Source: a phage
NCBI GenBank assembly: GCA_019326865.1
Contig: GCA_019326865.1_4101.1
Direction: 5' to 3' (one strand)
DNA: 64,000 nucleotides
Shown here: positions 8,715 to 62,003 of the stretch, piece after piece
Position numbering within the stretch: position 1 is the first letter of the stretch
Layout: each line of letters begins with the position of its first letter
Translations under genes and position numbers: made by a program
Notes under the pieces: model-generated
Told to the model about the DNA's origin: nothing
What the model saw: only the letters and a program-made list of their open reading frames with translations
The model's database searches: none

Positions 8715-8736
8715 TACATATAATGAGGGAACATAG

Positions 8737-10257: not shown

Positions 10258-10260
10258 TAA

Positions 10261-10533: not shown

Positions 10534-10534
10534 T

Positions 10535-11088: not shown

Positions 11089-11144
11089 TTGTGATAAATA
11101 TCATAAAGCAAGACAGAGGTCTTTTTTTATTTTATGGAGAAAAT

Positions 11145-12089: not shown

Positions 12090-12307
12090 TGAGAACAGTA
12101 ATGAATGTGTATGGTCACAATACGATGGTTTCTAATGAAGAATACAAACTATTACAAAAGATAAAAGCACGTGGAACTGTTCCAGTTGAAAAGGTTAATG
12201 AATATTATCAAGAACTTGCTGATAAAATGGTATCACGTGGTGTTCTAAATAAAATAGAAAATGTTGACGGTACTGAATCATATCAAACAGTTAGGAGTAG
12301 TAAATGA
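12089..12307 (+). CDS. hypothetical protein
   Basis: ATG overlaps upstream stop (TAATG), GAGGT RBS. Confidence 0.5.
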   Translation: MRTVMNVYGHNTMVSNEEYKLLQKIKARGTVPVEKVNEYYQELADKMVSRGVLNKIENVDGTESYQTVRSSK

Positions 12308-12981: not shown

Positions 12982-14729
12982 TTATAGATGAATTGAAGAA
13001 ATTCTTAAAAAGCAAAAACAAAAAAACATGGGTTAAGTTGGTAAGCAATAATGAAGTGTATTTTAAATATGTTCGTGAATTATTCCCAACTAAACCCATG
13101 AATGAAGCATTGTATCTTATAATGAACGATATGGTATGTGCACCATCTGCCCCATGTGGCTCTGAATGTAAATTTATTAATGGTTCATATGATAAGTATT
13201 GTTCTAAGCCAACAAAACCAAACAAAAATCGTGATAATGGTTTTTGTGTAGTATGCAATGAGCATTGGAAGAACGCCAAACTCAAAAATACTAAACAAAA
13301 ATGCCTTGATGCTTATGGAGTCGAATATCATTGGCAAAGAAATGATGTGAAGGACAAAATAAAAAGTACTAATATGAAACGATATGGCGTTGAGCACAAT
13401 TCGCATATCGAACATGTTCTTGAAAAAAGAAAGGAAACCTTCATTAAAAGATATGGTGTTGAATCACCTTTAGCATCTGTTGAAATTCGTGATAAGATAA
13501 AAGCAACAAACATTGAAAAATATGGTGTTGAAAATTATGGAAGTACTGATGAATGTATAGAAAAACGAAATAAAACAATGATGGATTTATATGGTGTTAA
13601 TAATGCACAACATGTAACGAAATTTTTAAATGAATCAAAGGTTACGAAAGCTAAAATTAGGTATGATAAAATTTTATCTATTATTAACCCTTCATATAAA
13701 GAACTTTTTGAATATGATGACTTGATAGATTCAACTAATGAAAGTAAACTTCCGTATTATTGTGAAATACACAAAGGGCTGTTTTATAGTAATTATAAAT
13801 ATGGTATAGTTTGTAGTGTTTGTAATCCACCCGTGTATAGTTCCATACAAAATGAAATAAAGAATTTTGTATCAACATTGACTGAATGTGACATTATTAT
13901 GAATGATCGAAGTAATGGGTATGAATATGATATATACATCCCTGAACTCCAGATAGCAATAGAAGTTAATGGAATGTATTGGCACAAAAGTGATATGGTT
14001 GATAAGTATTATCATAGGACAAAAACAATAAATTCGATTGAACGTGGAATTAGATTGATACATATATTTGAAGATGAATGGTACAGTAAACAGGAAATTA
14101 TTAAAAATAGATTAATGAACGTTTTTCAATGTTCTAGTAAGATTTATGCCAGAAAATGTATTGTTAAAAAAATTAACACAAATATTTGTTATGATTTCTT
14201 GAACACTAATCACATACAAGGATATACTAAAACTGGAATAAACTATGGTTTGTTTTATAAACAAGAACTGATTGCAGTAATGACGTTCAGTAAAAGTCGA
14301 TATGATAAAAAATTTGAATATGAGCTAATACGATATTGCTCACGTGGAACGGTTGTTGGTGGGGCTGGTAAATTATTGTCTGCATTTGAGCGTGATTACA
14401 AACCATTGTCGTTGATGAGCTACGCAGACTTGAATTGGGGTTCTGGGCAGTTATACATATCTCTTAATTTTGAAAATTTGGGATATACCGAACCCAAATA
14501 TTTTTATTATGATCCAAAAACAAAACAGCGTTTTTCTAGACAAAAATTTAGAAAACATAAATTGATTGAAATGGGCCACGACTCATCTAAAACTGAAGAA
14601 GAGATATGCTTAGGTGAAATTGGATTGTATAAAATATACGATTCTGGCAATTGCAAATTTGCTAAATATTATTACAACATAAACATTACAGGAGATATTG
14701 AAAAATGTCCAAATCGTACAAAAAACTAA
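12978..14729 (+). CDS. putative homing-endonuclease-like protein (tandem repeats + nuclease motif)
   Basis: Cys-rich N-terminus; five ~22-aa repeats with [KR]YGVE core; later DIYIPELQIAIEVNGMYWH resembling Vsr/DUF559-type endonuclease motif; 583 aa. Confidence 0.45.
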   Translation: MIIDELKKFLKSKNKKTWVKLVSNNEVYFKYVRELFPTKPMNEALYLIMNDMVCAPSAPCGSECKFINGSYDKYCSKPTKPNKNRDNGFCVVCNEHWKNAKLKNTKQKCLDAYGVEYHWQRNDVKDKIKSTNMKRYGVEHNSHIEHVLEKRKETFIKRYGVESPLASVEIRDKIKATNIEKYGVENYGSTDECIEKRNKTMMDLYGVNNAQHVTKFLNESKVTKAKIRYDKILSIINPSYKELFEYDDLIDSTNESKLPYYCEIHKGLFYSNYKYGIVCSVCNPPVYSSIQNEIKNFVSTLTECDIIMNDRSNGYEYDIYIPELQIAIEVNGMYWHKSDMVDKYYHRTKTINSIERGIRLIHIFEDEWYSKQEIIKNRLMNVFQCSSKIYARKCIVKKINTNICYDFLNTNHIQGYTKTGINYGLFYKQELIAVMTFSKSRYDKKFEYELIRYCSRGTVVGGAGKLLSAFERDYKPLSLMSYADLNWGSGQLYISLNFENLGYTEPKYFYYDPKTKQRFSRQKFRKHKLIEMGHDSSKTEEEICLGEIGLYKIYDSGNCKFAKYYYNINITGDIEKCPNRTKN

Positions 14730-15340
14730 TGGAAACTGCTTCTCGTGCTGAAGCAATGAAATTCATTAAATTGAATGAATCTAACATTGAAAAGGCGGAA
14801 ATCGTCCTTTCAGTTAAAGGTGAAATTGTTGATAAATTACAACGTCAATCAGAGGTTATTAATAACATGGGTGTTGACGTATTAGGCCCACTACTAGATC
14901 GTATTAAAGCAGAACAAGGTCTAGATGCTGCTCAGAATTTTAGTGATAATGTTCGTCATCTACTACAACATGCGGTAGCCACATTGATGGATGTAAAAGA
15001 TAAAATCAGTACAGAAACACTCAAATTGACTGGTGATATTACCGATGGTCCTGATGTTTCTGATATTGGCAGTGAAGACGTTGATATTGATATTGCAGCC
15101 GATACACCAACTTTTGATATGGATGCTGATGCAGATTTTGAAGATGATATTATTTCTGAACCAGTTCCAACCGAGCGTGAAATGAAGGAATCGGTAAAAC
15201 CACGTAAAGTTGGAGTAAAAATGGAAAGTATTCGTGGTACTGTAGGTACTAAATACTTTAGTTCAAAAGATGAAATGAAAACCTGGCTCTCAGAGAATGA
15301 AAAGAAAGTCAAGCGTGTTCTAGGATATGTTAAAAAATAA
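14705..15340 (+). CDS. hypothetical acidic protein
   Basis: 211-aa ORF, D/E-rich central region. Confidence 0.5.
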   Translation: MSKSYKKLMETASRAEAMKFIKLNESNIEKAEIVLSVKGEIVDKLQRQSEVINNMGVDVLGPLLDRIKAEQGLDAAQNFSDNVRHLLQHAVATLMDVKDKISTETLKLTGDITDGPDVSDIGSEDVDIDIAADTPTFDMDADADFEDDIISEPVPTEREMKESVKPRKVGVKMESIRGTVGTKYFSSKDEMKTWLSENEKKVKRVLGYVKK

Positions 15341-15356
15341 TTAAGGATAAATCTAC

Positions 15357-15692
15357 ATGAGATTTAGTGATCTTACTGAAGAGGCTCCTGGTAAGGATAT
15401 ACGCAATATGATTACTACTATTGCGTTGTCTTTAATGTCAACGGGCCGAGAAGATGTAAATGTTCAATCTTTGATTTCAGAAATCAAAAAGAGAACTAAT
15501 ATTGATGTTCCATACAATGTAATGATGGATATTTTGAATTCCCTTCCTTTTGTACAGGATGCCAATTCCGATGTTGTAACTTTTGTTGGAAATTCAGAAG
15601 AAGGTTCAGGTGAATTAGAACAAGATTCTGAAGATCAAGTTGAAGATTGGGCAACAAAAGCTGCGGTGTCAGCAAATAAACAAAAAAACTGA
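15357..15692 (+). CDS. hypothetical protein
   Basis: 111-aa ORF, acidic. Confidence 0.5.
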   Translation: MRFSDLTEEAPGKDIRNMITTIALSLMSTGREDVNVQSLISEIKKRTNIDVPYNVMMDILNSLPFVQDANSDVVTFVGNSEEGSGELEQDSEDQVEDWATKAAVSANKQKN

Positions 15693-15708
15693 GACAAATA
15701 AAAATATA

Positions 15709-15717
15709 ATGCTATAA
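15709..15717 (+). promoter_or_regulatory. extended -10 promoter element (TGcTATAAT)
   Basis: TGcTATAAT just upstream of RBS and start at 15732. Confidence 0.4.
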
Positions 15718-15731
15718 TTAGGAGTACACGG

Positions 15732-16451
15732 ATGTACACACCACCAATTGTTAGCAGATATACATATGTTGGTTATAATAGAATTGAAGGCGGCCCCGAA
15801 GGTCGCCTTTATTCAACTCCAACGGGTAATCTGCCGTCAGTAACAACAATTCTAAGTGCGACCTCAAATGATGAGGGATTAAAGAAGTGGAGAGAATTTG
15901 TTGGTGAAGAAAAGGCTAATGAAATTACATTAGAAGCATGTACTGTTGGTACTTTTATGCATGAGAACTTAGAATTTAGATTAGAAGGTAAACCAGATCA
16001 TGAAGGTGGGATGCCAATCCGAGTTCTTGCACGTAGAATGGCTGATAAGATTCAGCAAGAGGCATGGCCTAGAATTAATGAAGTGTGGGGACAGGAAGTT
16101 CCATTATACTATGAAGGGTTATGGGCTGGAACTACAGACCTAGTGGGTGTTCATGATGGAATTCCCACCATTATGGATTATAAAAATTCTCGCAAGGTTA
16201 AGAATTGGGCACAAATTGAAAATTATCGTATGCAGATTGCAGCGTATGCATTAGCACATAATCAAATGTTTGGGACGAATATTGAACGTGGTGTGATTTT
16301 CATCTGTGTAAGAAAAGATCCTAATAATCTACAATATCAAGAGTTTGTTATTGAAGGACAAGACTTCAAGGATGCTGTTAATATGTGGATTGAGCGTGTT
16401 GAGCAATACTATATTTTGCGTGGAGAAATTGAATCAAATGGAGCAGCATAA
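15732..16451 (+). CDS. PD-(D/E)XK family nuclease (RecB/Cas4-like)
   Basis: Motifs GTTDLVGV and IMDYKNSRK fit D...D/E-x-K; 239 aa. Confidence 0.55.
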   Translation: MYTPPIVSRYTYVGYNRIEGGPEGRLYSTPTGNLPSVTTILSATSNDEGLKKWREFVGEEKANEITLEACTVGTFMHENLEFRLEGKPDHEGGMPIRVLARRMADKIQQEAWPRINEVWGQEVPLYYEGLWAGTTDLVGVHDGIPTIMDYKNSRKVKNWAQIENYRMQIAAYALAHNQMFGTNIERGVIFICVRKDPNNLQYQEFVIEGQDFKDAVNMWIERVEQYYILRGEIESNGAA

Positions 16452-16455
16452 AAAA

Positions 16456-16992
16456 ATGAAACAAGACCTATATACAATTCGTGCATTGGAAAGTAAAGGG
16501 TATAATTTGGAAGAAATCATTAAACTGAGTGAACAAGAAATTGATAATCTTGATTTATCACATAAACTGATTCTAAATATCAAAGATTATAAACAGCGTG
16601 GTGCAAAACCAGTAGAAGAAATTAAAGAACAAATTGCACAAGATATTAGTATCGATGAGGTATCACGCAATGTCCCGCCAGAAGTAATTCAAGAGTATGC
16701 TGTTAATAGTGATGAGCAATTGAAAGTTTCTGAAGAAGTTGAAACTATTACAGAAGAACTTACCCCTGAAGTAGAAGAAGATGAAATTGTTATTGAGCGT
16801 GTAGTTTCTTCTAAAGAAGATTTGGATATTATCAAAGAAGCACTACAAACAAAAGAACTTAAAAGTGTATCCAGTTATGTAAAACATCTAAAATCTCTAG
16901 TTCCAGAACAAATTCTCTCTTCTGTAGATAGCTCAGTTGTATCACAACTAATCAATGAGCGTATTACTGAAGTTAAAGAAAAAGCTAAATAA
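16456..16992 (+). CDS. hypothetical acidic protein
   Basis: Start at 16456 after GGAG RBS; E-rich. Confidence 0.5.
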   Translation: MKQDLYTIRALESKGYNLEEIIKLSEQEIDNLDLSHKLILNIKDYKQRGAKPVEEIKEQIAQDISIDEVSRNVPPEVIQEYAVNSDEQLKVSEEVETITEELTPEVEEDEIVIERVVSSKEDLDIIKEALQTKELKSVSSYVKHLKSLVPEQILSSVDSSVVSQLINERITEVKEKAK

Positions 16993-17020
16993 TCCTATAA
17001 TACTATAGGAGATGGTTTTT

Positions 17021-17602
17021 ATGGCACAACAACAAATTGCGTTACAACAAGTAAGAACTGGTAAACAGCGAGATTTACCAGATGCATTAGAAAAAGGTCA
17101 GATTGGATTCAGTACTGATGTGGGTCGTGTTTTCATCGGTCTTCCATCATCATCTGACCCTGCCAGTTTAGTTGCTGGTAGAACGTGGACAACTGACCCT
17201 AATTCGGGTAAAGAAAACGTTGAAATAATTACAGAATTTTCGCCGTGGCGAACGGTTTCTAAAATAATCAACAGACCGTTTAAAGTTGACCTTCCACTAA
17301 ATCAAGAAAAAATTGAAGTTATTCTTGAAAGTGATAGTCGAGTGTTTATTGATTATATTGCATATGATGATTCTGAAGAAGTATTGGAATCTGGAACCGT
17401 GCAAATTGTAACTATTGGAAACAAATCAATGTTTGCACAGTCTAATAATACAAATCGAAATGATGCAATTATCTCGATTTCATTTGAAGATCCTGCATAT
17501 GATTCCACAACTGGAAATATGCAATTTAACATAGTAAATTCGGATTATTTAAATTCAGGATATCATATAGAATTTGTATATCGTGGGTGGGACAAACCTT
17601 AA
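17021..17602 (+). CDS. hypothetical protein
   Basis: Start at 17021 after GGAGA RBS; terminator follows. Confidence 0.55.
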   Translation: MAQQQIALQQVRTGKQRDLPDALEKGQIGFSTDVGRVFIGLPSSSDPASLVAGRTWTTDPNSGKENVEIITEFSPWRTVSKIINRPFKVDLPLNQEKIEVILESDSRVFIDYIAYDDSEEVLESGTVQIVTIGNKSMFAQSNNTNRNDAIISISFEDPAYDSTTGNMQFNIVNSDYLNSGYHIEFVYRGWDKP

Positions 17603-17622
17603 AAGGCGGTCCCGCCTTTTTC
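17601..17622 (+). terminator. rho-independent terminator
   Basis: aggcg-gtcc-cgcct hairpin then TTTTT. Confidence 0.7.
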
Positions 17623-17668
17623 TTCCACTAAAAAAAGAAATTTACATCAAAAAAAACAAGGATGACAC

Positions 17669-19987
17669 ATGATTAACGTAACCAAGCGTAATGGAATGAA
17701 AGAACCGTTATCATTGGATAAGATCCATCAGATTTTATTTTTCGCTGCTGAAGGTCTAAGTGGTATTTCAGTTTCTGAAATTGAAATTCGTGCACAACTT
17801 CAGTTTTATGAAGGTATTGAAACTAGTACTATTCATGATATTCTGATTAAAGCAGCCGCAGAACTTATTTCAGAAGATACACCAAATTACCAATATGTTG
17901 CTGGTAGATTATTAAACTATAGTATTCGTAAGCAAGTATATGGGCAGTATGACCCGATTAAATATGCTGCTCATCTTCAAGAAATGGTTGATATCAAAAT
18001 ATATGATCCTGAAATTCTTGAAAAATATACTCTTCAAGAAATAGAAGAGCTTGGGCGTTATATCAAACATAAACGTGACGATAAATTTACTTATGTTGCA
18101 ATGCGACAATGGGAAGGAAAATACCTTTACAAAAACCGCGTTACTAAGAAAATTTATGAAACTCCACAAATGGCATATATGACTATTGCCGCAATCATTT
18201 TTATGGAGTATGATCGTTCCGTTCGTATGTCATATGTTAAAAAGTTTTATGATGCAGTAAGTAACTTTGACATTAGTCTTCCTACACCTATTATGGCTGG
18301 TCTACGTACAAACACACGTCAGTTTAGCTCTTGTGTAGTTCTAAATGTTGGTGACAGCTTGGATAGTATTGGTTCATCTAACCACGCCATTCTACGTTAT
18401 ATTTCACGTAAAGCTGGTCTTGGTATTAATATGGGCCGCATTCGTGCCTTGGATTCCGAGATTCGTTCAGGTGATGCAGTACATACTGGATTGATTCCGT
18501 TCATTGCAGCTACTGCTAAAACTGTTAAAAGCTGTTCACAAGGTGGTGTTCGTGGTGGAGCAGCAACTGTTCACTTCCCATTGTGGCATTTGGAATTTGA
18601 TAACTTGGTAGTTCTTAAAAACAACAAAGGAACTGAGTTTAACCGTGTACGTCAACTGGACTATTGTTTCCAAGTAAACAAAACTTTGTATCAACGTTTG
18701 GTTGATGGAAAGAATATCACGTTCTTTAGTCCTAATGAAGTTCCTGGGTTATATGATGCATTCTGCTCTGATCAAAAAGAATTTGAAAAGCTATATAAAA
18801 AATACGAATCTGACCAAAGCATCCGTAAAAAATCCGTACCTGCTGTTGAAGTATTCAGTACTTTAATGACGGAACGTGCAGAAACTGGTCGTATCTATAT
18901 TCAAAATATTGACCATACAAACACACACTCAACATTTATTGAATCAAATGCTCCTATCGAGCAATCCAACTTGTGTCAGGAAATCGCACTACCATCTGTG
19001 CCATTTGATGATATTAATACTGGTAAAGGTTTGATTAGTTTATGTACCTTGAGTGCAATCAACTGGGGTAACTTTGACCGTCCAGAAGAGATGGAAACTG
19101 CATGTGATCTTTCTGTTCGTGCTCTTGACTCACTTTTAGACTATCAAGACTATCCAGTAGTTCATGCGGATCGAGCAACAAAAATGTATCGTCCACTAGG
19201 TGTTGGTATTATTAACTTTGCCTATTTCCTTGCTAAACGTGGTTTACGTTATAATGAAGCTGCACTGGAAACAGTTAACGAATGGGCTGAAGCATGGTCT
19301 TACTATCTAATTAAATCGTCTGTACAGCTTGCTAAAGAGAAAGGTAAATGTGAAGGATTTGATAATCTAAAATATGCCAAAGGTATCCTTCCAATTGATA
19401 CTTATAAATCTGATATTGATGAATTAGTAACTAAAGAACTAAAACAAGATTGGGAATCTTTGCGTGAAGATATCAAAGAATATGGCATTCGTAACGCAAC
19501 AACCATGGCATTAATGCCAGCAGAAACAAGTGCACAAATCAGTAACAGTACTAACGGTATTGAAAAACCACGTTCTCTCGTAACTAAGAAACTATCTAAG
19601 GATGGTATTCTTAAACAAGTAGTTCCTGAAATTAATAAATTAAAAAACAAATATGATTTATTATGGGAACAAAAAGATAACATTGGTTATCTACAAATTT
19701 GTGGTGTTCTACAAAAATACATTGACCAAAGCATCAGTGTTAATACCAGTTATAACCCAGCACACTTCCCTGATGGGAAGTTGCCAATGTCGACTCTCCT
19801 AACTGAGCTTATGTATGCATATAAGGTTGGTTTGAAAAATCTTTATTATCATAATACAAATGATGGTTCAGATGAAGTAGACGTTGAAAAAGTACTGAAA
19901 GAAGCTGCAAAACCAGAATCAGGGCAGTTCGTGTTACCTACACTATCGGACTTAGATGAAGGTGATTGTGATAGTTGTAAAATCTAA
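17669..19987 (+). CDS. nrdA: ribonucleoside-diphosphate reductase alpha subunit (class Ia)
   Basis: N-terminal ATP-cone (VTKRNG...), 772 aa, C-terminal Cys pair (CDSC); followed by nrdB. Confidence 0.85.
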   Translation: MINVTKRNGMKEPLSLDKIHQILFFAAEGLSGISVSEIEIRAQLQFYEGIETSTIHDILIKAAAELISEDTPNYQYVAGRLLNYSIRKQVYGQYDPIKYAAHLQEMVDIKIYDPEILEKYTLQEIEELGRYIKHKRDDKFTYVAMRQWEGKYLYKNRVTKKIYETPQMAYMTIAAIIFMEYDRSVRMSYVKKFYDAVSNFDISLPTPIMAGLRTNTRQFSSCVVLNVGDSLDSIGSSNHAILRYISRKAGLGINMGRIRALDSEIRSGDAVHTGLIPFIAATAKTVKSCSQGGVRGGAATVHFPLWHLEFDNLVVLKNNKGTEFNRVRQLDYCFQVNKTLYQRLVDGKNITFFSPNEVPGLYDAFCSDQKEFEKLYKKYESDQSIRKKSVPAVEVFSTLMTERAETGRIYIQNIDHTNTHSTFIESNAPIEQSNLCQEIALPSVPFDDINTGKGLISLCTLSAINWGNFDRPEEMETACDLSVRALDSLLDYQDYPVVHADRATKMYRPLGVGIINFAYFLAKRGLRYNEAALETVNEWAEAWSYYLIKSSVQLAKEKGKCEGFDNLKYAKGILPIDTYKSDIDELVTKELKQDWESLREDIKEYGIRNATTMALMPAETSAQISNSTNGIEKPRSLVTKKLSKDGILKQVVPEINKLKNKYDLLWEQKDNIGYLQICGVLQKYIDQSISVNTSYNPAHFPDGKLPMSTLLTELMYAYKVGLKNLYYHNTNDGSDEVDVEKVLKEAAKPESGQFVLPTLSDLDEGDCDSCKI

Positions 19988-19995
19988 ATAAAAAA

Positions 19996-20020
19996 ATCCC
20001 GCTTCGGCGGGATTATTTTT
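19996..20020 (+). terminator. rho-independent terminator
   Basis: atcccgc-ttcg-gcgggat hairpin plus T-tract. Confidence 0.75.
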
Positions 20021-20034
20021 AACGGAGTGATATA

Positions 20035-20808
20035 ATGAAAGTTGATTATTTTAAACCAATTAATATTGGTTTCATTGAGGAATTTTGGGATGATTTGGAC
20101 ATGGATATGATTGTTCGCCATCAAAAGCTTCCAGACGATTTCATTAAGAAGCATTTTGATAAAATGAACCCTAACATGTTGGCTCGTTATCAAACTATGT
20201 CAATTGATTTCTTAAAAGAAAAGTGGGAATGGTTCGATAAGAACGTTCTGGCAACATATGTTGTCATGCCACTGGAACTCATTAAAGAAAAGTGGGATGA
20301 TTTTAAAGATAACTGTCTTGGAACAGTTGCAAAATACCAAAAAATGTCATTGGATTTTATACAAGAAAAATGGGATGACTTTGTAGAGTTTAAAGATGGT
20401 GTAATGTCAGAAATCTCTCGTTACCAAAAATTAACTCTGGATTTCATTCAAGATAAGTGGGAATATATAGATAAGAATTATATTTCTTATTATCAAACTT
20501 TAACTGTTGATTTCATCAAAGATAACTTAACAGAACTGAACATTGCTGCGGTATCTGCATTCCAAATTATTTCTGATGATGTTCGAAATCTTATGGGATT
20601 GGCTGCACCAGCAGCAACCATTACCGGAAACCAAATATTATCTCTAGACCCATGTGTGGATGGTATGGCACGATATAACGCCCATACTCCTGATAACACA
20701 ACAGTACTGACATGGAATGAATTATTACAAAAACACTTGGGTACACAGGACGGAATTCGTGATATCCATTGGTTGTCTTATAAACTAGGACATAACATCA
20801 ATACATAA
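20035..20808 (+). CDS. tandem-repeat protein
   Basis: Five to six ~27-aa repeats with core YQ-x-[ML]-[ST]-[IL]-DF-[IL]-x-[ED]-KW-[DE]; 257 aa. Confidence 0.55.
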   Translation: MKVDYFKPINIGFIEEFWDDLDMDMIVRHQKLPDDFIKKHFDKMNPNMLARYQTMSIDFLKEKWEWFDKNVLATYVVMPLELIKEKWDDFKDNCLGTVAKYQKMSLDFIQEKWDDFVEFKDGVMSEISRYQKLTLDFIQDKWEYIDKNYISYYQTLTVDFIKDNLTELNIAAVSAFQIISDDVRNLMGLAAPAATITGNQILSLDPCVDGMARYNAHTPDNTTVLTWNELLQKHLGTQDGIRDIHWLSYKLGHNINT

Positions 20809-53399: not shown

Positions 53400-53951
53400 A
53401 TGATTGAACAAATTAAAATTCTCACAAAGCAAATTACCGATTTTCTTTCAGATAAAGATGGTTTTAAAACAGAAGTAAAAATGCACGGTGTTAGTCTTGA
53501 TGTTATTTCTCCTGATTCTAATGTGACAAATTATGATATGTATGAATTATTCCTTTACACGTTAGCAGTACGTAAGTTAGGAAGTGATATTGAACTTAAT
53601 ATTAATACTAATAGCGAAGGAAATAAAATTTTTGCAATCAACACGAGTGCCAAATTTGATATTAATGCAGAAATTAAAAAAATCAATGAAAGTTTTGTTG
53701 GCTTTAAACATAATTCTATTCAAGGTGTTTTTGTAGGAAAACAAACTTCCTCAAGTCAATACCCATACTGCATTATGACTTTATACAAAAATGGCGATTG
53801 GATGCGACAAGATTTAGTTTATGCTGAATTGTTGTATGCGTTTACACATGATCTTGTAATTGAATTGGACGACAGTGCTTTTTGCTTTAAGAAAATCAAA
53901 AAATTAACCAATGACATTCAAACACAACTTAAAGATTTAAATGATAAATAA
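53400..53951 (+). CDS. hypothetical protein
   Basis: 183-aa ORF. Confidence 0.5.
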   Translation: MIEQIKILTKQITDFLSDKDGFKTEVKMHGVSLDVISPDSNVTNYDMYELFLYTLAVRKLGSDIELNINTNSEGNKIFAINTSAKFDINAEIKKINESFVGFKHNSIQGVFVGKQTSSSQYPYCIMTLYKNGDWMRQDLVYAELLYAFTHDLVIELDDSAFCFKKIKKLTNDIQTQLKDLNDK

Positions 53952-54010
53952 ATATACCAGAAATGGTTAACATATCATGTTACTTTCATCCCTTACATAA
54001 TAATTATGCG

Positions 54011-54056
54011 TTATTATATTTTTCATTATTATATTTTTCATTATATTATTATTTTC
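54011..54056 (+). repeat. 15-nt tandem direct repeat in intergenic region
   Basis: ttattatatttttca twice in tandem (54011-54040) plus a partial third copy. Confidence 0.6.
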
Positions 54057-54085
54057 TTTTTATTGTACATAATCATATTAGTACT

Positions 54086-54107
54086 GCCCCGTTTTTCGGG
54101 GCATTTT
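54086..54107 (+). terminator. rho-independent terminator
   Basis: ccccg-ttttt-cgggg hairpin then TTTTT. Confidence 0.65.
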
Positions 54108-54129
54108 TATTATCTAAAATTGAGGATAT

Positions 54130-54525
54130 ATGAATAATAACATTGGAACTTCAATAATTAACCCACTTTCTTATTACCTTGAGAAATTTAGAAGTACAAA
54201 TGGTAAGAAATTTAATAATATATTTCAGTTTTCTCATAAAGAATATATTACTATTGATCATTTTTCAAAGAAACTAATGTATGTAAATGATAATAATCAT
54301 ATTATTAAATTATCATTTGATATTGAATTAGATAAATTGACATTTACTGAATATATTAATAATAAAACTTCGTTTTTAAGCACATACAATAGAAAAGTAT
54401 ATAGGAACATTTCAATGTACCTAAATGACGAATATTACTTTCAACAATCTACCATAGAAGATGTATTATTCAGTACAGAAGAATTAAAAGAATTATATTA
54501 TTGGTATGAGCAATTTATCTATTGA
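54130..54525 (+). CDS. FQxS-motif paralog family member
   Basis: C-terminal DEYYFQQSTIEDV. Confidence 0.55.
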   Translation: MNNNIGTSIINPLSYYLEKFRSTNGKKFNNIFQFSHKEYITIDHFSKKLMYVNDNNHIIKLSFDIELDKLTFTEYINNKTSFLSTYNRKVYRNISMYLNDEYYFQQSTIEDVLFSTEELKELYYWYEQFIY

Positions 54526-54577
54526 CATTGTGGTTCGATTCTTCTACAATACAAGATAATACGTTGAGGAAAAATGA

Positions 54578-54988
54578 ATGAGTTTAGATTTACACAATGA
54601 ACTAAAATATTTTTTAGATTTGGATATATCCAATTTGAGCCAACACGTCAATTATATAACTAGTACTGTGTGGTGGTCTAATGAACAAGATGACCCAATT
54701 ATACAACTAAGTGATAATTCATCAGTTATGCGATTTTATAAGATTAATTATAAAAATAACATCAAGATCACATATATACCATACAAAAACATACTAATAG
54801 CCGAAACACTTAATCCAAGCTCTTTATTAAAAATCACCGATATAGATACATTACAAACAAATGAATCATTATTTCAACGTTCATTGGTTGATGATCTTGG
54901 TGGTATTACTTTTGAAGATATATTACAATTGAAGAATATGTATAGCGAATTGTTAGAGATTAAAAACACTTTAGTAATGGGGGATTGA
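54578..54988 (+). CDS. FQxS-motif paralog family member
   Basis: C-terminal NESLFQRSLVDDLG. Confidence 0.55.
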   Translation: MSLDLHNELKYFLDLDISNLSQHVNYITSTVWWSNEQDDPIIQLSDNSSVMRFYKINYKNNIKITYIPYKNILIAETLNPSSLLKITDIDTLQTNESLFQRSLVDDLGGITFEDILQLKNMYSELLEIKNTLVMGD

Positions 54989-54989
54989 T

Positions 54990-55388
54990 ATGGTAAGTTT
55001 ACTAGATATTGATAATACCAGTTTAGTGTTGGTGAAAAAAGGTTTAATCCCCAATTCTACAAAAATTGATTATGCTGTTATTGAAACAAATATGGGAAAT
55101 ATTTGGTATGATTCCGAAAGGGATATTGTGATTAGCTGCGTAGACAGTGACCGTGCTGAGTGTTGTAGAGTCGGTCATGACGGACAATTTGTTTTTGAAT
55201 TTCGTTATTGGAAGGACGCAAAATTTCACCAAGAACTTGTTGCTTTGTCAAATGAACTATATACAGAAGAAACTTTCTTTATGGAAAGTACTATTAATGA
55301 TCTTGGTTCAGTAACGTATGAGCACTATAAAAAAGTATACACACTATCCAGAGAAGTTATGAAAATTATCAGAACTGCTGAAAGTTGA
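54990..55388 (+). CDS. FQxS-motif paralog family member
   Basis: C-terminal EETFFMESTINDLG. Confidence 0.55.
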   Translation: MVSLLDIDNTSLVLVKKGLIPNSTKIDYAVIETNMGNIWYDSERDIVISCVDSDRAECCRVGHDGQFVFEFRYWKDAKFHQELVALSNELYTEETFFMESTINDLGSVTYEHYKKVYTLSREVMKIIRTAES

Positions 55389-55395
55389 GAATAAC

Positions 55396-55785
55396 ATGAC
55401 TACTATATATGATATTTTAGATAACTTGAATAAAAATATTGATAAAAATTTAGTTATCGTCGCTAATACTAGATGTATAATTCATCTTCCAGATATAAAT
55501 TATATTCCAACGGATACAACTGATAGATTAATTATTAATACATATTTACAATCATTAACATATCTCTATAATGGGATGGTGATATGGGTTTTTGATATAA
55601 AAGAAAATACAATACGATATGTATATGACTTTAACGATTATTGGTCAAGAACCCATAACATTGATATTGAGGAAGATGAACTGTTTCAATTGTCGTTAAT
55701 CGAGAAAAATGTAATAGGAGTTACCGAAATTGGCATTGTTAAAAAAGCATTGGAATATGCAAATAGTAAATTAAATGGTGAATAA
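55396..55785 (+). CDS. FQxS-motif paralog family member
   Basis: C-terminal EDELFQLSLIEKNV. Confidence 0.55.
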   Translation: MTTIYDILDNLNKNIDKNLVIVANTRCIIHLPDINYIPTDTTDRLIINTYLQSLTYLYNGMVIWVFDIKENTIRYVYDFNDYWSRTHNIDIEEDELFQLSLIEKNVIGVTEIGIVKKALEYANSKLNGE

Positions 55786-55787
55786 AC

Positions 55788-56234
55788 ATGGATGTTGATA
55801 AAATAGCAAATCATTTTGAAATTGCATTATCTTGTAATTTTGATACCAAAAGCGTAGAATCACCTAAAGAGTATATACATATTAGCTGTTCTTATTCACA
55901 TTCATGTATAGTCCATATTGAAAAGACCTATGACCGTACTGAGTTATCGTTTTACAACCCACTCATCAGAACAACATCAGTTATGTTAATATATAATACA
56001 ATATCTGACATTATTGAAATTATTTCAAATTATACTGATGTAACTTGTACAACTATATATAATGCAAGTACATGCATAACAGAAGAAGGATATTTCCAGG
56101 AGTCACTTATTCAAAATTTTAATTATGATTATAAAGATTTATGTTATATAGTCTTAAGTTTTGAAAAAATAAACGAAATGGTTTTGTCATTATTTGACAT
56201 AATCGAACAAAATCCAAAGGTAATCAAATGCTAA
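55788..56234 (+). CDS. FQxS-motif paralog family member
   Basis: C-terminal EEGYFQESLIQNF. Confidence 0.55.
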   Translation: MDVDKIANHFEIALSCNFDTKSVESPKEYIHISCSYSHSCIVHIEKTYDRTELSFYNPLIRTTSVMLIYNTISDIIEIISNYTDVTCTTIYNASTCITEEGYFQESLIQNFNYDYKDLCYIVLSFEKINEMVLSLFDIIEQNPKVIKC

Positions 56235-56668
56235 ATCCAATAAAGTTTTTTAATTTATTAGGTATTACATCTATACCGGATTTAACAAGTGAAACAAACG
56301 TATATCGTGATGTTGGAAATGTATCATTGGAATATGATACATTTGACTTTAAATGTTACATAACATATAACATTGAATCCTATACTAAAAAATCATCATA
56401 CATTTTTGTGTTCATATATAATGATTATAGTGGTAATACACTGAATGATGTTCATATTGACACATTTGAAATATGTGGTAATATTATATCAGATGAATCA
56501 TCATCTACATTTGATTTGGAATTAAACAGTACTGAAGAGTCACTTTTTCAGTTGAGTACTATAAGTGACACTATATTAACACCAGATGACATTGAGAAAT
56601 TTAAAGAACATCTTGACGCAGTTCGTGAGATGTTCTATAATCATTATCCAGAAGTGGAGTTCAAATAA
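56228..56668 (+). CDS. FQxS-motif paralog family member
   Basis: C-terminal EESLFQLSTISDT. Confidence 0.55.
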   Translation: MLNPIKFFNLLGITSIPDLTSETNVYRDVGNVSLEYDTFDFKCYITYNIESYTKKSSYIFVFIYNDYSGNTLNDVHIDTFEICGNIISDESSSTFDLELNSTEESLFQLSTISDTILTPDDIEKFKEHLDAVREMFYNHYPEVEFK

Positions 56669-56943: not shown

Positions 56944-57021
56944 GGAAATATATGTCTGAAAAACCAAAAGAACCTTTAGATCGTGATGATGATTTTTATG
57001 ACGAACGATATGGAGATGATA

Positions 57022-57273
57022 ATGAGTGAACATAGTGCGGTGCTTAAAAAGATTTTAAAGGAAATTGATGGTGAGTTTAATGTCACAGAAGAAGAATATC
57101 AGCATTGGAAGAAAGATTTCGAACAACTAACCGAGTATGATAAAGTGTTCAATATGATTGGTGTAATTAGCCAGTACTTACTTGGTGGAGGACGTGCAAG
57201 TGCTTCAATTCTGGCATCTGCAATCATCTGCACATCACGATGGTGTGATGAAAAAAGTTTGGAAGATTTCTAA
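57022..57273 (+). CDS. hypothetical protein
   Basis: Start at 57022 after GGAGA RBS; a 25-aa upstream ORF (56952..57029) with its own RBS overlaps by ATGAGTGA. Confidence 0.45.
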   Translation: MSEHSAVLKKILKEIDGEFNVTEEEYQHWKKDFEQLTEYDKVFNMIGVISQYLLGGGRASASILASAIICTSRWCDEKSLEDF

Positions 57274-57289
57274 ATAAGATGCTATAATA

Positions 57290-57298
57290 TATTATAGT
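57290..57298 (+). promoter_or_regulatory. extended -10 promoter element (TGcTATAAT)
   Basis: About 28 nt upstream of methyltransferase start. Confidence 0.4.
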
Positions 57299-57325
57299 AC
57301 CTTAACAATATAAAAAGGATTTTAT

Positions 57326-59221
57326 ATGAAACCTATCCGAGTACTATCTCTTTTTAATGGGATGAGTGTAGGATACATGGCATTAAAAGATGCTGGTATC
57401 CCTGTTGAAAAATATTATTCATCCGAAATTGACAAATTTGCTATAGCTGAATCCCAAGCTAACTTCCCCGATATCATCCAATTGGGTGATGTAACTAGAT
57501 GGAAAGAATGGGATATCGAATGGGACAAGATAGATCTACTGATGGGTGGTTTTCCATGCTTCCCAGCAGGAACTATGATAATGACAAATAAAGGTCATAA
57601 AGATATAAAAGATATAAAAATTGGTGATATGGTTCTTACACACACTGGACAGTACCAAAAAGTATTGAGTACTTGTGTAAAACAAGCACCAACTAGAATT
57701 ATATCAGGTCAGGGCCATTTACCTATTGAATGTACCGATAATCACCCATTTTATTCGAGAGTTTTGGGTAAAAAATGGAATAATGCCAAACGTCAATATG
57801 ATAGAATAGCAAGCGATGCAGAATGGGTATATGCATCAGAATTAACACCAAATCATTTACTATGTAATGTAAAATCATCGTATGTTCGTGAATCATCATT
57901 GAGAGATGAAAAATTTTGGTATTTTATGGGTAGATTTGCAGGAGATGGGTGGGTATCAAAAGTTAAACGTCAAAAAAGAAAAAATAGTTATGTATATAAA
58001 GTGTTAATGTGTTGTGCACATGATGAATTTGATGAATTGGTTGAATGTTTTGATGGTTTAAAAATGAATTATAATTATACCAAAGAACGCACTTCATATA
58101 AATTTTATATTACATCAAAAACTTTACTTGAATTCTGTGAAAAGATGGGGAAAGGTGCTTCTAATAAAATTGTTCATCCTGAATTATGGTCCGAATGTGT
58201 AGAAAATAAAAAAGCTTTTCTTGAAGGGTACATATCGGCTGACGGTCATTACTATGATGGTAAATGGCACATTACATCAACATCATCAAACATGATATTG
58301 GGTATACAGCAATTAGTCATGGACATTTATGGAAGGCATGTGAATATACATAAAGTCACACCGTCACCCACTAAGATTATTGAGGGACGTATAGTAAATC
58401 AAAAACCGTGGTACAGAATAGAATTCACTGAAAATCCACTAAAACATGAAAATGCTTTTTATGATGATGATACGTATGCTTGGGTAAACGGTGTCAAAAA
58501 AAGTATACCTACAAATGAAATAAAAGACGTATATTCATTTGAAGTTGCAGTAGATAACACATATACGGCGAACAATATTGTAGTTCATAACTGTCAAGCG
58601 TGGTCAGTTGCTGGGAAACAAGGCGGTGTGAATGACCCTCGTGGTATGTTATTCCATACAATGGTTGATATTTACCAGCACATAAAAAGTCTCAATCCAG
58701 ACTTGAAAGTACTGTTCGAGAATGTTAAAATGAAAGAAGATTTCAAGCAATACATTAATAGTGTTCTTGAGATGACACCAGTACTGATAAATTCCCAGCA
58801 TTATACGCCTCACTTCAGGCAGAGATATTACTGGTACAGTACTGATAAACTTTTTATACCACCTGCATTATCCAATGCACCTAAACTTCAAGATATTATT
58901 GAAGATGGTTGGTACACTGACAGAACCGCTTCGTACTGTATAGATGCTAACTATTTTAAGGGTGGTGATTGTAACCAGTACTTTAATAAATCAAGAAGAC
59001 AAATTGTTTTCAAAGAACCTGATATCGATAGGGATTTCCTTCTTGAACATGGTAAGCGAAATGTGGACTATCGTCATTTAACAGTACAAGAGTGTTGCAT
59101 GTTGCAAGGAATTGATGTAAACTACTTCAAAGTTAGTAGTTCAACACAAGCATACAAAATGCTTGGGAATGGATGGACTATGCCAGTTATATCACACTTA
59201 CTACGAGATATATTCTTTTGA
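57326..59221 (+). CDS. DNA (cytosine-5)-methyltransferase interrupted by an in-frame intein
   Basis: N-extein: motif I LFNGMSVG, E-x-D, GGFP; C-extein: CQAWSVAGK (completes motif IV), ENV, QRYYW, MLGNGWTMPVISHL. Exteins total about 286 aa. Confidence 0.75.
   Translation: MKPIRVLSLFNGMSVGYMALKDAGIPVEKYYSSEIDKFAIAESQANFPDIIQLGDVTRWKEWDIEWDKIDLLMGGFPCFPAGTMIMTNKGHKDIKDIKIGDMVLTHTGQYQKVLSTCVKQAPTRIISGQGHLPIECTDNHPFYSRVLGKKWNNAKRQYDRIASDAEWVYASELTPNHLLCNVKSSYVRESSLRDEKFWYFMGRFAGDGWVSKVKRQKRKNSYVYKVLMCCAHDEFDELVECFDGLKMNYNYTKERTSYKFYITSKTLLEFCEKMGKGASNKIVHPELWSECVENKKAFLEGYISADGHYYDGKWHITSTSSNMILGIQQLVMDIYGRHVNIHKVTPSPTKIIEGRIVNQKPWYRIEFTENPLKHENAFYDDDTYAWVNGVKKSIPTNEIKDVYSFEVAVDNTYTANNIVVHNCQAWSVAGKQGGVNDPRGMLFHTMVDIYQHIKSLNPDLKVLFENVKMKEDFKQYINSVLEMTPVLINSQHYTPHFRQRYYWYSTDKLFIPPALSNAPKLQDIIEDGWYTDRTASYCIDANYFKGGDCNQYFNKSRRQIVFKEPDIDRDFLLEHGKRNVDYRHLTVQECCMLQGIDVNYFKVSSSTQAYKMLGNGWTMPVISHLLRDIFF
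57557..58591 (+). mobile_element. intein with LAGLIDADG homing-endonuclease domain (345 aa)
   Basis: Starts CFPAGTMIM, block B TDNHPF, two LAGLIDADG-like motifs (FMGRFAGDGWV, FLEGYISADGHY), ends NNIVVHN before +1 Cys. Confidence 0.7.
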
Positions 59222-59703
59222 ACATAAACAAACACCAAACTTATATAAAACGTGCAGAAAGTTTCAAACGGCTGGCTGTAAAATCTGAATTAGAATTTAA
59301 TTTGTATTATCCTAATATTGGTGATGAGGTATTTTATTGCTCTCATTCAAAGAATGGAACTTTACTTAAATCGGGTAAAGGAACTATTGTTGATATGACC
59401 GCAAATTTCAGAGGTAAACTTAATGTAATGTACAAAGTACAAGATTCAAGAACTGAGTGTATTCATGAAGTGATGCATAACATACCTGCATATCCAAAAG
59501 ATTTTGTTCAGCTAATATCTCGAAGGGAGAAACCTATGTTCTATTGTGGTTACGACAAATTAACCAAACAAATTATTCCTAATACTATGGGAAAATTTAA
59601 AAGTGATGTAAAATCTGAACTAGAAAAGAAATTTGGTACATCATGGGAAACTGAAAACGAGTTTATCGAAATTCGTTTAATTGAAGTTACTATTCTTGAT
59701 TAA
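59173..59703 (+). CDS. hypothetical protein
   Basis: 176-aa ORF overlapping methyltransferase 3' end; start uncertain. Confidence 0.4.
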   Translation: MDYASYITLTTRYILLNINKHQTYIKRAESFKRLAVKSELEFNLYYPNIGDEVFYCSHSKNGTLLKSGKGTIVDMTANFRGKLNVMYKVQDSRTECIHEVMHNIPAYPKDFVQLISRREKPMFYCGYDKLTKQIIPNTMGKFKSDVKSELEKKFGTSWETENEFIEIRLIEVTILD

Positions 59704-59708
59704 TTATA

Positions 59709-59731
59709 AATCCACGCAATGCGTGGATTTT
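59709..59731 (+). terminator. rho-independent terminator
   Basis: atccacgc-aat-gcgtggat hairpin then TTTTT. Confidence 0.75.
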
Positions 59732-59745
59732 TCATAGGTGTATAT

Positions 59746-60261
59746 ATGTCAATTCCTTATGTTAAAATTATTAACAATATTCTTGATTCTTGGGAAGATG
59801 TCATTATTGGCAAAAAGAAACCTTTTCCTGTTCATGCACTAACTGGAAGACTACAATTCAGAATGTCAAACAAAACTGAAACGTTTAATAATCATGATAT
59901 TTGTATTACATTAAAAACACCTGTTAGTATTGTAATTAAAAAAAATAAAGATGATGAATTGTCATTATCTATTGGTCGTGATAAAATCATTTTAAGTAAT
60001 TTGTCTGAAGAAGAATTCTTTCAAAGAAGTACTATCATCGACATGAAAGATTTCACATATGAATCATTAGTAGAACTCAATACACGTTTTGATGATATTC
60101 AGGAACGATTGCGACCAATCCTCCGTAGAGAAGAAGAAGCCTGGATTGAAAGTATGAAGAAGATGCAAGAAATGTTAAAAGAAACTATTAACAATATGGG
60201 TCAATCTATTTTGGACATTGGTAAAACTTTTAAACTCAACTTTTCAAAGGAACGTAAATGA
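59746..60261 (+). CDS. FQxS-motif paralog family member
   Basis: Start at 59746 after AGGTG RBS; motif EEEFFQRSTIIDM. Confidence 0.55.
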   Translation: MSIPYVKIINNILDSWEDVIIGKKKPFPVHALTGRLQFRMSNKTETFNNHDICITLKTPVSIVIKKNKDDELSLSIGRDKIILSNLSEEEFFQRSTIIDMKDFTYESLVELNTRFDDIQERLRPILRREEEAWIESMKKMQEMLKETINNMGQSILDIGKTFKLNFSKERK

Positions 60262-60710
60262 AAATCGATGAACTGATTTATATTTTAGGTAACTTGCATA
60301 AAATATTGTTACATCTCCAAGAGATAAAGAACCTTGGGTATAGCATGTCCAATACTAATAAAACCGCATTTGAATACAACCCAACCACGGGTGGAAATTA
60401 TAATATTGTGTATTGTTATGAAACTGACCCAGACTGCTATCAACTTACGTTATACTTTTATCCAACAAACCCTACCATTGTTCAAGACATATCATCAATA
60501 TCACTTGACCCAGATGGTGAAATGAGTATAGAATATAGCTATGATTCTAAAAAAGAATGTTACGTTGAAGATATGAAAAATATGTTTAACGACGAATATG
60601 TGTTCCAGCTAAGTACTGTACATGATGTTGGAAGTACTAATGGACAATTTTGGAATACATGTTATTATCATATGATTGAAATTTGTAAATTACTAAAAGG
60701 CGATGATTAA
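60258..60710 (+). CDS. FQxS-motif paralog family member
   Basis: C-terminal DEYVFQLSTVHDVG. Confidence 0.55.
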   Translation: MKIDELIYILGNLHKILLHLQEIKNLGYSMSNTNKTAFEYNPTTGGNYNIVYCYETDPDCYQLTLYFYPTNPTIVQDISSISLDPDGEMSIEYSYDSKKECYVEDMKNMFNDEYVFQLSTVHDVGSTNGQFWNTCYYHMIEICKLLKGDD

Positions 60711-61093
60711 TGAAATACAGCATTGAAGTACATTACACTACTGGTGATACTGAAAATCAATATAACATAGTTAAGACCATTGATGTTCAATGGGATACTA
60801 AAGAGGAAGCAGTTGCTGCTTTACAGTGCCTAAAAGAGCATTGGGTGTTTTATATGAAGCAAGATAATTGCTATACAAAAGAACACGAAACTATCGTTAA
60901 AAATGCTAAACAAAAAGAGTGGTTTGACCCAATTTCACCAGAATATTCATTTTTGGTTAAAGTTGGCGGTGTGACAGTTCCCTTACGTACACCGTGGAAC
61001 GGCTACTTTGAAACTCTTCATAATGCACGAGTTGTCGCTGTTGATAATCCTGAACAAATCGATTTCGATTCATTGGACTGGAAAAAACTATGA
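60710..61093 (+). CDS. hypothetical protein
   Basis: 127-aa ORF between family members. Confidence 0.5.
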   Translation: MKYSIEVHYTTGDTENQYNIVKTIDVQWDTKEEAVAALQCLKEHWVFYMKQDNCYTKEHETIVKNAKQKEWFDPISPEYSFLVKVGGVTVPLRTPWNGYFETLHNARVVAVDNPEQIDFDSLDWKKL

Positions 61094-61533
61094 CAGTACT
61101 GCACCAATTGAAGAAGGTTAAGCATCCAGTTGTATATGAGGACTGGAAACGTCAGAAGCTGATGGGTGACTTTTATTACCCAAAATCTAAAGTTCTGGCA
61201 ACGTCAAAAGCTATATACTTGAAATATAAGGATGAAGATTGTTTGTGTATTCAAATGGGATTCCATCCTAAAGTTGGTTTGTTTAAATCAAATCAAACAT
61301 TTTATAAATTTAGAATTCAAAAAGATACATTTAGTATTCATATCGAAAAGCCTGATGTACAAGATACAATTTATCGTGTGGAAAGTCAGCCTTTGAATCT
61401 TGTTGAGATTCCGTACAATAATTTAGAAGAAATGTACTTTCAGCAGTTGACAATACAAGAAGACTTTGGTATGATAGGACTTCAAGAGTTAGAGATGATT
61501 AAACAAATTCGTGATATCTACTTTAAGGAGTAA
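61090..61533 (+). CDS. FQxS-motif paralog family member (divergent)
   Basis: C-terminal EEMYFQQLTIQEDFG. Confidence 0.5.
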   Translation: MTVLHQLKKVKHPVVYEDWKRQKLMGDFYYPKSKVLATSKAIYLKYKDEDCLCIQMGFHPKVGLFKSNQTFYKFRIQKDTFSIHIEKPDVQDTIYRVESQPLNLVEIPYNNLEEMYFQQLTIQEDFGMIGLQELEMIKQIRDIYFKE

Positions 61534-61535
61534 CT

Positions 61536-61679
61536 ATGCCAGTACGTAACAGTACTTCACGCTTTACGCTTCAACAGAAAGCAGATCTTTTGAATATGGC
61601 AAACAAAGATTCTAATTTTCACTATCTAGTGCTCGGTGGGTCAGTAGAAAAGATTGACCTACGTGAGTGTATGAAATAA
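61536..61679 (+). CDS. small hypothetical protein (47 aa)
   Basis: Not in ORF track; AAGGAG RBS 5 nt upstream of ATG. Confidence 0.4.
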   Translation: MPVRNSTSRFTLQQKADLLNMANKDSNFHYLVLGGSVEKIDLRECMK

Positions 61680-61693
61680 CAAAAGGGGCTAAA

Positions 61694-61864
61694 ATGAGTC
61701 TACGTGAATCATGGGAACAATTTAAAGAAGAGATTGGTTATCGTGGTGTTAAGATTGAAAAAATCAATCGTTCTGAAAGCATCAAAGCCAGTTCTAATGG
61801 CACTACTTATGATCGTTATGATGAAAAGTATGGTTTGCATTCTAACCCGAAGGATAGTGAATAA
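61694..61864 (+). CDS. small hypothetical protein
   Basis: Start at 61694 after AAGGGG RBS. Confidence 0.4.
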   Translation: MSLRESWEQFKEEIGYRGVKIEKINRSESIKASSNGTTYDRYDEKYGLHSNPKDSE

Positions 61865-62003
61865 TGGTATACACTAACATTTTTACTGGTATTATGCGTA
61901 AATTTATTAATGGTACTGGATACGTATCCAATGACAACGGTAGTACATGGGTAAAAAATAATACATCTGAATCTTTAGTAAAAAGTCTTCCGTATTATAA
62001 AGC

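Follow-up and report, generated by a model that had tools for sequence, protein, structure and literature searches.

Paralogous protein groups have been described from several jumbo phages. About 35 copies of a zinc ribbon are found in Bacillus phage G (PMC7824862), phAPEC6 encodes eleven RCC1-like proteins (PMC7247149), and 'nearly 10%' of the products of RaK2 are paralogues (PMC3622015). We have analyzed a stretch of 64,000 nucleotides (the window) of phage DNA from GenBank assembly GCA_019326865.1, contig GCA_019326865.1_4101.1, and in particular three plus-strand open reading frames (ORFs) between positions 59746 and 61533, here called B1, B2 and B3. A preliminary description of this DNA had noted that they carry the same short motif as an array of six ORFs at 54130-56668 (A1 to A6), located on the other side of an intein-containing methyltransferase gene. 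The window comes from an Asteriusvirus coliphage; it has a GC content of about 33%, and its region 57000-62000 shares 84-95% DNA identity with the Asteriusvirus jumbo phages of E. coli (121Q, PBECO4, UE-S1, TH47 and others). Our preferred explanation, held with moderate confidence, is that B1 to B3 are unexceptional members of a very large and old multigene family, recognizable at the protein level and specific to the RaK2-like jumbo phages.

The family motif reads [ST]-E-E-x-Φ-F-Q-x-S-[TL]-[IV]-x-D and is found in ten plus-strand ORFs of the window (Table 1): B1 to B3, the six ORFs of the array, and a tenth ORF (A0) that lies outside the coordinates given in the preliminary description. The coordinates of B1 to B3 and the motif strings that had been quoted for them are confirmed. 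When all six frames of the window are translated, the pattern [DEN][DE]x[FYLV]F[QM]x[SL][TL][IV] matches 10 times, as compared with no match in 200 simulated first-order Markov versions of the window. All 10 matches fall in plus-strand ORFs of 129-171 amino acids (aa), in which 28-75 residues separate the F of the motif from the stop codon. The motif reads EEEFFQRSTI in B1, DEYVFQLSTV in B2 and EEMYFQQLTI in B3, starting at about residues 88, 110 and 113, respectively. A broad hidden Markov model (HMM) of the family identified no eleventh member in the window (next match at an expected value, E, of 0.45).

The membership of the three ORFs in the family of the main array, as first proposed, is supported by leave-one-out HMMs, by profile-profile alignment with hhalign, by cross-hits in PHROG and by the topologies of AlphaFold 2 (AF2) models. 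In the leave-one-out searches each member took rank 10 among 113 ORFs, immediately behind the nine members used for training (E values 3e-10 to 4e-3). The values for B1, B2 and B3 were 3.4e-8, 1.9e-5 and 3.4e-6 (alignment 42-139), and all three scored above the 103 decoy ORFs, the best of which reached E values of 0.03-0.14. The preliminary description had held that its family assignment would fail if the three ORFs did not align with the array beyond the motif. Taken literally, this is what was found: with the 12-residue motif masked, B1 to B3 fall among the decoys. But so do A0 to A6, and since the members of the array are equally undetectable to each other when masked, this result cannot separate the second cluster from the array. 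Between the paralogs, sequence similarity is limited to the motif and a few flanking residues, within the main array as well, and pairwise BLASTP among them reveals almost nothing except the motif. For hhalign, sequences from six Asteriusvirus genomes were combined into one small profile per paralog. All of the 28 top-scoring pairs joined two family members and stood above every control pair, led by A1-B2 (84% probability, 47 columns) and A2-B1 (70%, 34 columns); A3-B2 spanned 66 columns. The B members are not each other's nearest relatives, as B-B comparisons gave E values of 0.07-0.14 versus 8e-6 for A1-B2.

Database searches place each of the window proteins in a PHROG of its own, with E values of 1e-38 to 1e-106, and all of these groups are labelled 'unknown function'. 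B1, B2 and B3 match the singletons phrog_38573, phrog_21500 and phrog_23719, and A0 to A6 match, in order, phrog_23322, 33313, 24941, 24510, 36084, 30841 and 30548. Weak cross-hits (E values 1e-3 to 1e-6) connect A0, A1, A2, A3, B1 and B2 with one another. No usable relative of the members was found in Pfam, NCBIfam, PADLOC or a sequence-profile search of the PDB, and homologue searches with the family alignments returned close Asteriusvirus-type orthologs only. Similarly, neither Pfam and NCBIfam nor the literature on the paralog families of 121Q, PBECO4, RaK2 and CBB yielded an account of the motif, of the topology common to the members or of their copy number.

One member from each cluster was modelled with AF2, and the predicted order of elements is identical in the two: an N-terminal helix, a six-stranded antiparallel sheet, two short helices of which the second bears the motif, and a C-terminal helix. 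The B2 model (predicted local distance difference test, pLDDT, 81.5; predicted template modelling score, pTM, 0.77) has helices at 3-25, 106-110, 112-118 (motif) and 129-147 and strands within 37-103; the A1 model (pLDDT 83.7, pTM 0.79) has helices at 13-22, 94-98, 100-109 (motif) and 116-130 and strands within 31-92. The alignment used for A1 held no B-cluster sequence. In the models the motif lies inside a high-confidence helix (blocks of pLDDT 92-95) of the C-terminal helical part. In a Foldseek search of BFVD with the B2 model, the top matches were uncharacterised proteins from RaK2, GAP32 and fHe-Yen9-04 (probability as high as 1.00, template modelling (TM) score as high as 0.60). A MAM33/p32 (gC1qBP) fold was also considered and was rejected, as neither the Pfam MAM33 accession nor a significant structural match to that fold was obtained.

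The composition of the motif was assessed in 72 sequences of the family, drawn from metagenomes and from phages of four genera. The F is invariant (72/72), as is the T or L of the [TL] position (72/72). Q is found in 68 sequences and is otherwise replaced by M; the second E is E or D in 67, the first E is E in 62, S is retained in 59, D in 53, and the initial position is T or S in 51. In its extended form, [ST]-E-E-x-Φ-F-Q-x-S-[TL]-[IV]-x-D-Φ-G, the motif varies only at positions i, i+4 and i+8 (columns 96, 100 and 104), a pattern suggestive of a motif helix that exposes one face and packs the remainder on other parts of the structure. Helix caps may be formed by its acidic start and its D-Φ-G end. 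Conservation of the strand region across these sequences is weak but consistent. Relaxed variants of the motif occur in other genera (HFQQMTV, YFQYYTI, HFMEMTV, LFQIETI), the most persistent part being F-Q and the T/L-I/V that follows. The motif serine is encoded by both codon families (AGY in 26 cases, TCN in 21), F by TTT and TTC, and Q by CAA and CAG, which indicates selection on the protein rather than on the DNA; conservation of a DNA element, such as a recombination or regulatory site, is ruled out by the same observations.

The family extends far beyond the window. Iteration of the family HMM on the 946 ORFs of the complete, unannotated genome of TH47 (MT446416.1) identified at least 56 members (40 in the first pass), all on one strand and together representing 7.1% of the genome. 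Of these, 34 lie in a single block at 53.5-81.4 kb, while the orthologs of the ten window members are found at 173-182 kb; ten members from the large block had no Pfam match. The RaK2-like Klebsiella phage OU509535.1 has at least 41 members, 38 of them with the motif (5.4% of the genome), and a control search with the family HMM on reversed sequence gave no members. Genome-wide, members are about 100-210 aa long, with 28-84 aa from the F of the motif to the stop and an N-terminal part of about 55 to 160 aa. When 1.84e9 representative sequences were searched exhaustively with the HMM, 53 clusters were obtained at E ≤ 1e-3. Nearly all of these carry the motif, most match roughly half or more of the profile, and most are 114-192 aa long, apart from six short fragments of 54-92 aa. 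Matches by tblastn were found solely in RaK2-like jumbo phages, namely Asteriusvirus, Alcyoneusvirus, Mimasvirus and Eneladusvirus and phages of Salmonella (Munch and relatives), Pectobacterium (CBB) and Erwinia. In Yersinia phage fHe-Yen9-04 (stretch 6307-20399) and in GAP32 (stretch 10352-15450) members are intermixed with tRNA genes. Overall, the preliminary description assigned the three ORFs to the right family, one that is about five times larger than it implied; its account of the intein, dealt with below, was wrong.

The age of the family is apparent from RaK2 (Alcyoneusvirus). Collinear family orthologs lie on both sides of its methyltransferase, ORF194: ORF184 corresponds to A0 (45% identity, 145 aa), ORF186 to A2 (28%, 133 aa), ORF187 to A3 (29%, 140 aa; the two have the rare Q-to-M change in common), ORF191 to A5 (27%, 141 aa) and ORF198 to B3 (28%, 155 aa), while ORF196 is related to B2 as a best match only (31% over 80 aa, E 7e-6). 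Because the collinear orthologs align over their full length at 27-45% identity, these comparisons show that the paralogs diverged long before the split between Asteriusvirus and Alcyoneusvirus and that each has since been maintained as an ortholog line of its own. These lines are under purifying selection: the ratios of nonsynonymous to synonymous substitution (dN/dS) of the members with respect to three relatives are 0.04-0.54, and positive selection as a general feature of the family was rejected on the basis of these values. No motif is present in the gene at 53400-53951, located between A0 and A1. In RaK2 the counterpart of this gene, ORF185, gives a weak alignment (E 0.014) to the portion of the family profile that covers the N-terminal helix and the sheet, and the gene may be a degenerate member that has lost the motif module.

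How such a family could work may be outlined with low confidence. The variable sheet and loops would bind different host proteins, in host takeover or in counteracting host defences; the conserved motif helix would hold the fold together; and each of the old paralogs might keep a host target of its own. Several observations weigh against the explanation we prefer. The near-invariance of the polar Q and S in a helix, while the rest of the sequence decays, exceeds what purely structural demands usually impose. The position of the motif ranges genome-wide from 56 to about 160, so the N-terminal part is not constant in size, and some short members cannot hold a complete six-stranded sheet. The common fold proposed for A1 and B2 is a matter of the order of secondary-structure elements in two models that were not superposed, and these are not fully independent, since the alignment behind the B2 model included A-type paralogs. 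Two of the three ORFs under study, B1 and B3, are not acidic as most other members are (see below), and early expression is deduced from promoter-like sites only.

The strongest rival, and one we consider unlikely, is that the motif helix is a shared docking or processing signal. Each member would then engage one common partner (for instance a protease, a clamp or a modifying enzyme of host or phage) while its variable N-terminal part picks the cargo, or the motif would itself be a cleavage site. This reading would account for the retention of F and Q, invariant or nearly so, in 72 sequences that otherwise have no detectable similarity, and for the fairly constant distance from F to the stop next to an N-terminal part of variable length. 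It might also account for P0045, a metagenomic protein of 115 aa in which residues 46-115 share 77% identity with the motif module at the C-terminus of RaK2 ORF184 and residues 9-33 match the Pfam RecQ-1-like_HTH accession (46.6 bits), so that the module is joined to an unrelated N-terminus. P0045, however, comes from a single contig of 1046 bp and could be a natural domain swap or an assembly chimera; it is probably chimeric. As this is the sole Pfam match in the family, RecQ-1-like_HTH was rejected as a family domain. The AF2 models also speak against a signal, in that they predict a confident helix and not an extended or disordered segment, and the conservation pattern leaves only a single exposed stripe.

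The cleavage-site variant draws on a likeness to known protease sites. The NIa protease of tobacco etch virus (TEV) recognizes ENLYFQ↓S/G and the picornaviral 3C protease LEVLFQ↓GP. The family consensus E-E-x-[YFL]-F-Q-x-S resembles these sites in having E at P6, Y at P3, F at P2 and Q at P1. A TH47 member at 67931-68377 (minus strand) reads EEGYFQGS, which differs from the standard laboratory TEV site ENLYFQGS at the two tolerant positions only. EEGYFQES, DEYYFQQS and EEMYFQQL are the strings of window members near the TEV site. Unlike the TEV and 3C sites, the family motif is predicted to be helical and well packed, and its P1' position is variable. To our knowledge no such protease exists in these phages or in E. 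coli; no PA-clan protease turned up, and no search aimed at one was made. The resemblance is probably coincidental. Q-x-S-L-[IV] also resembles the β-clamp motif QL[SD]LF, but half of the members have T where the clamp motif needs L. Still more doubtful than a shared signal as such is a phage adaptor repertoire, in which the 40-56 paralogs of each genome would bring different host proteins to one shared machine, for instance a protease or a modifying enzyme. If true, such a repertoire would give bacterial viruses an equivalent of the F-box or PRANC families known from eukaryotic viruses.

The methyltransferase gene between the two clusters encodes a C5 DNA cytosine methyltransferase that does hold an intein with a LAGLIDADG endonuclease. 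The preliminary description had correctly placed family members on both sides of this gene, and went on to suggest that insertion driven by the homing endonuclease, or recombination between paralogs, had shaped the region. This origin of the two clusters is very improbable and is contradicted by several results. Alignment with the intein-free 121Q gp91 and with UE-S1 shows that the intein is an exact, in-frame insertion of 345 residues between GGFP and CQAWS, with the Cys of the conserved stretch as the +1 residue. Gene order around the methyltransferase is identical in the intein-free 121Q, Ecwhy_1, SD-15_S21 and phAPEC6 and in the intein-bearing UE-S1 and TH47, and the RaK2 methyltransferase, flanked by collinear orthologs, is likewise free of an intein. 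The arrangement is thus older than the split of the genera and independent of the intein; family members stood on both sides of the methyltransferase ahead of the intein's arrival. Furthermore, the two clusters have no DNA repeat longer than 29 nucleotides (nt) in common (the longest direct repeats are 18-27 nt, at 74-85% identity), and, as noted above, the B members are not mutual nearest relatives. The UE-S1 intein occupies the same site and its splicing ends are conserved, while its LAGLIDADG core is strongly divergent; most relatives, including 121Q, have no intein.

Mosaic alleles among the Asteriusvirus genomes could be taken as a sign of recombination at the locus. The A5 protein is 95% identical to that of UE-S1 versus 48% to that of 121Q, B3 is 98% identical in DNA to phAPEC6 versus 77% to 121Q, and the non-member gene between B2 and B3 is 92% identical to 121Q versus 70% to UE-S1. 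This pattern points to gene-by-gene exchange of alleles between related phages and not to rearrangement between paralogs. The B3 ortholog of the Salmonella phage SD-15_S21 (stretch 10318-10540) has lost 219 bp internally (nt 105-323 of B3), is frame-shifted and is probably a pseudogene; phAPEC6 has an intact but unannotated B3 ortholog (stretch 8059-8502). A special link of the family to the methyltransferase was also considered, as a family member, GAP32_389, lies directly 5' of the GAP32 methyltransferase and members flank the enzyme in RaK2. It was downgraded in view of the genome-wide copy number: with at least 56 members in a related genome, the flanking of any given gene is unremarkable.

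It is likewise very improbable that the members are packaged head or internal proteins, with the motif as a capsid-targeting or prohead-protease site. Proteases of the T4 gp21 type cut after L/I-x-E. Many members read L-[ST]-E-E, and the position two residues ahead of the first E is most often L or I (34/72), a conservation of only about 47%. In T4 the targeting sequences are N-terminal, whereas here the site lies some 100 residues into the protein. A T4-like prohead protease is encoded in phAPEC6 (gp227c), and internal head proteins are suspected in phages of the 121Q type (PMC7247149). The published data argue against virion proteins, since the virion proteome of phAPEC6 (62 proteins identified by mass spectrometry; PMC7247149, Table 1) includes none of gp103-136 and none of the ten orthologs, among them gp134c, gp132c-127c, gp121c and gp120c, and no RaK2 member carries an annotation as a structural gene of the virion. 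The resemblances to prohead-protease, TEV/3C and β-clamp sites are best regarded as leads, not tests.

The surroundings of the genes also speak against virion proteins: they lie among σ70-type promoters typical of early regions. Near-consensus promoters, defined by at least 11 of 12 matches to TTGACA-N16-18-TATAAT, number 22 on the plus strand of the window and 1 on the minus strand, versus 2.4 per strand in shuffled sequences. Sites listed include 12757, 28668, 46862, 54522, 62004 and 63864, of which that at 54522-54550 occupies the intergenic gap between A1 and A2. In TH47 the corresponding numbers for the two strands are 107 and 8, and the family lies within the promoter-rich part. The window as a whole has the look of DNA transcribed by host RNA polymerase, and this strand bias of σ70-type promoters suggests early transcription of the members by that enzyme. 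Signal peptides are absent from the window members. In A0 alone does the hydropathy exceed the usual threshold (19-residue mean of 1.83 at residue 64), over a stretch that is taken to be a buried strand. The members are soluble and mostly acidic, with isoelectric points (pI) of 4.2-4.8 for most of those in the window and 5.9 for A1. We infer that they are small cytoplasmic early proteins and not components of the virion.

Least probable of all is that the motif is convergent or due to chance in ORFs that are not homologous, for which the failure of every masked paralog to be found by the profile of the others might be cited, but against which stand the 10 matches observed where none was expected, the common size class, motif position and predicted order of elements, the remote homologs in other genera that match most of the profile, and the consistent conservation of the strand region.

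Table 1. Family members and other features of the locus (all on the plus strand; positions are those of the window).
Feature	Coordinates	Strand	Motif	Remarks
A0, 142 aa	52917..53345	+	EDVFFQQSLVYD	Family HMM E 3.7e-24
Terminator-like hairpin	54085..54103	+		Strong, intrinsic; 7 bp stem with 6 GC pairs, T run; just 5' of main array; equivalent annotated terminator in UE-S1
A1, 131 aa	54130..54525	+	DEYYFQQSTIED	AF2-modelled
A2, 136 aa	54578..54988	+	NESLFQRSLVDD
A3, 132 aa	54990..55388	+	EETFFMESTIND	M in place of Q
A4, 129 aa	55396..55785	+	EDELFQLSLIEK
A5, 148 aa	55788..56234	+	EEGYFQESLIQN
A6, 146 aa	56228..56668	+	EESLFQLSTISD
C5 DNA cytosine methyltransferase with intein	57326..59221	+		Non-member, between the clusters; Pfam DNA_methylase, Hint_2, LAGLIDADG_3
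Intein with LAGLIDADG endonuclease, 345 aa	57557..58591	+		Residues 78-422 of the methyltransferase
Terminator hairpin	59710..59732	+		ATCCACGC-AAT-GCGTGGAT followed by TTTT; between B1 and the gene 3' of the methyltransferase; annotated as terminator in UE-S1
B1, 171 aa	59746..60261	+	EEEFFQRSTIID	Extra C-terminal tail of about 50 aa; pI 7.8
B2, 150 aa	60258..60710	+	DEYVFQLSTVHD	AF2-modelled
Intervening gene, 127 aa	60710..61093	+		Non-member; without motif, unmatched by family HMM
B3, 147 aa	61090..61533	+	EEMYFQQLTIQED	L in place of S; pI 7.7; family HMM E 1.1e-22

Between 52 and 64 kb, all ORFs regarded as genes are on the plus strand. The start of B1 given in Table 1 is right, since the other candidate ATG, at 59719, falls within the loop of the terminator hairpin upstream. 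A low-complexity ORF of 56 aa (YFSLLYFSLYYYF...) at 53963-54133 overlaps the strong terminator 5' of the main array. It is annotated as gp82 in 121Q and is fused to A1 in some gene calls (P0012, 181 aa); it is probably not a gene.

Under the explanation we prefer, about 5-7% of the DNA of a RaK2-like jumbo phage is given over to one family of small, putatively early proteins, which the databases split into dozens of 'hypothetical' groups. Treating them as a single family, recognized by a simple diagnostic motif and by a profile, would make annotation tidier across this clade of phages. The family would also offer many tractable candidates for factors of host takeover or anti-defence, in phages now being developed as therapeutic agents against E. 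coli, Klebsiella, Salmonella and Cronobacter. The genes around the methyltransferase are in an ancestral arrangement, with the intein as a bystander.

Among known multigene families, the ankyrin/PRANC proteins of poxviruses and the multigene families MGF360 and MGF505 of African swine fever virus have a conserved C-terminal docking motif and are presumed to act in host range or immune evasion. By analogy, the phage family may be compared with these in its many paralogs, its variable body, its short conserved helical module near the C-terminus and its putative early expression. It differs in having no sequence or fold relation to them, and the motif may here be a mere core helix. In PHROG the family is split into many groups that look unrelated, and weak cross-hits alone hint at the link between them. 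A further parallel is with the lineage-specific expansions of jumbo phages, in which one small domain is likewise present in dozens of copies per genome, mostly in tandem arrays on one strand. Unlike those expansions, the family described here is built on a domain without a known fold relative, its 41-56 copies exceed the examples named in the papers, and its paralogs are ancient, with orthologs kept across genera, rather than recent duplicates.

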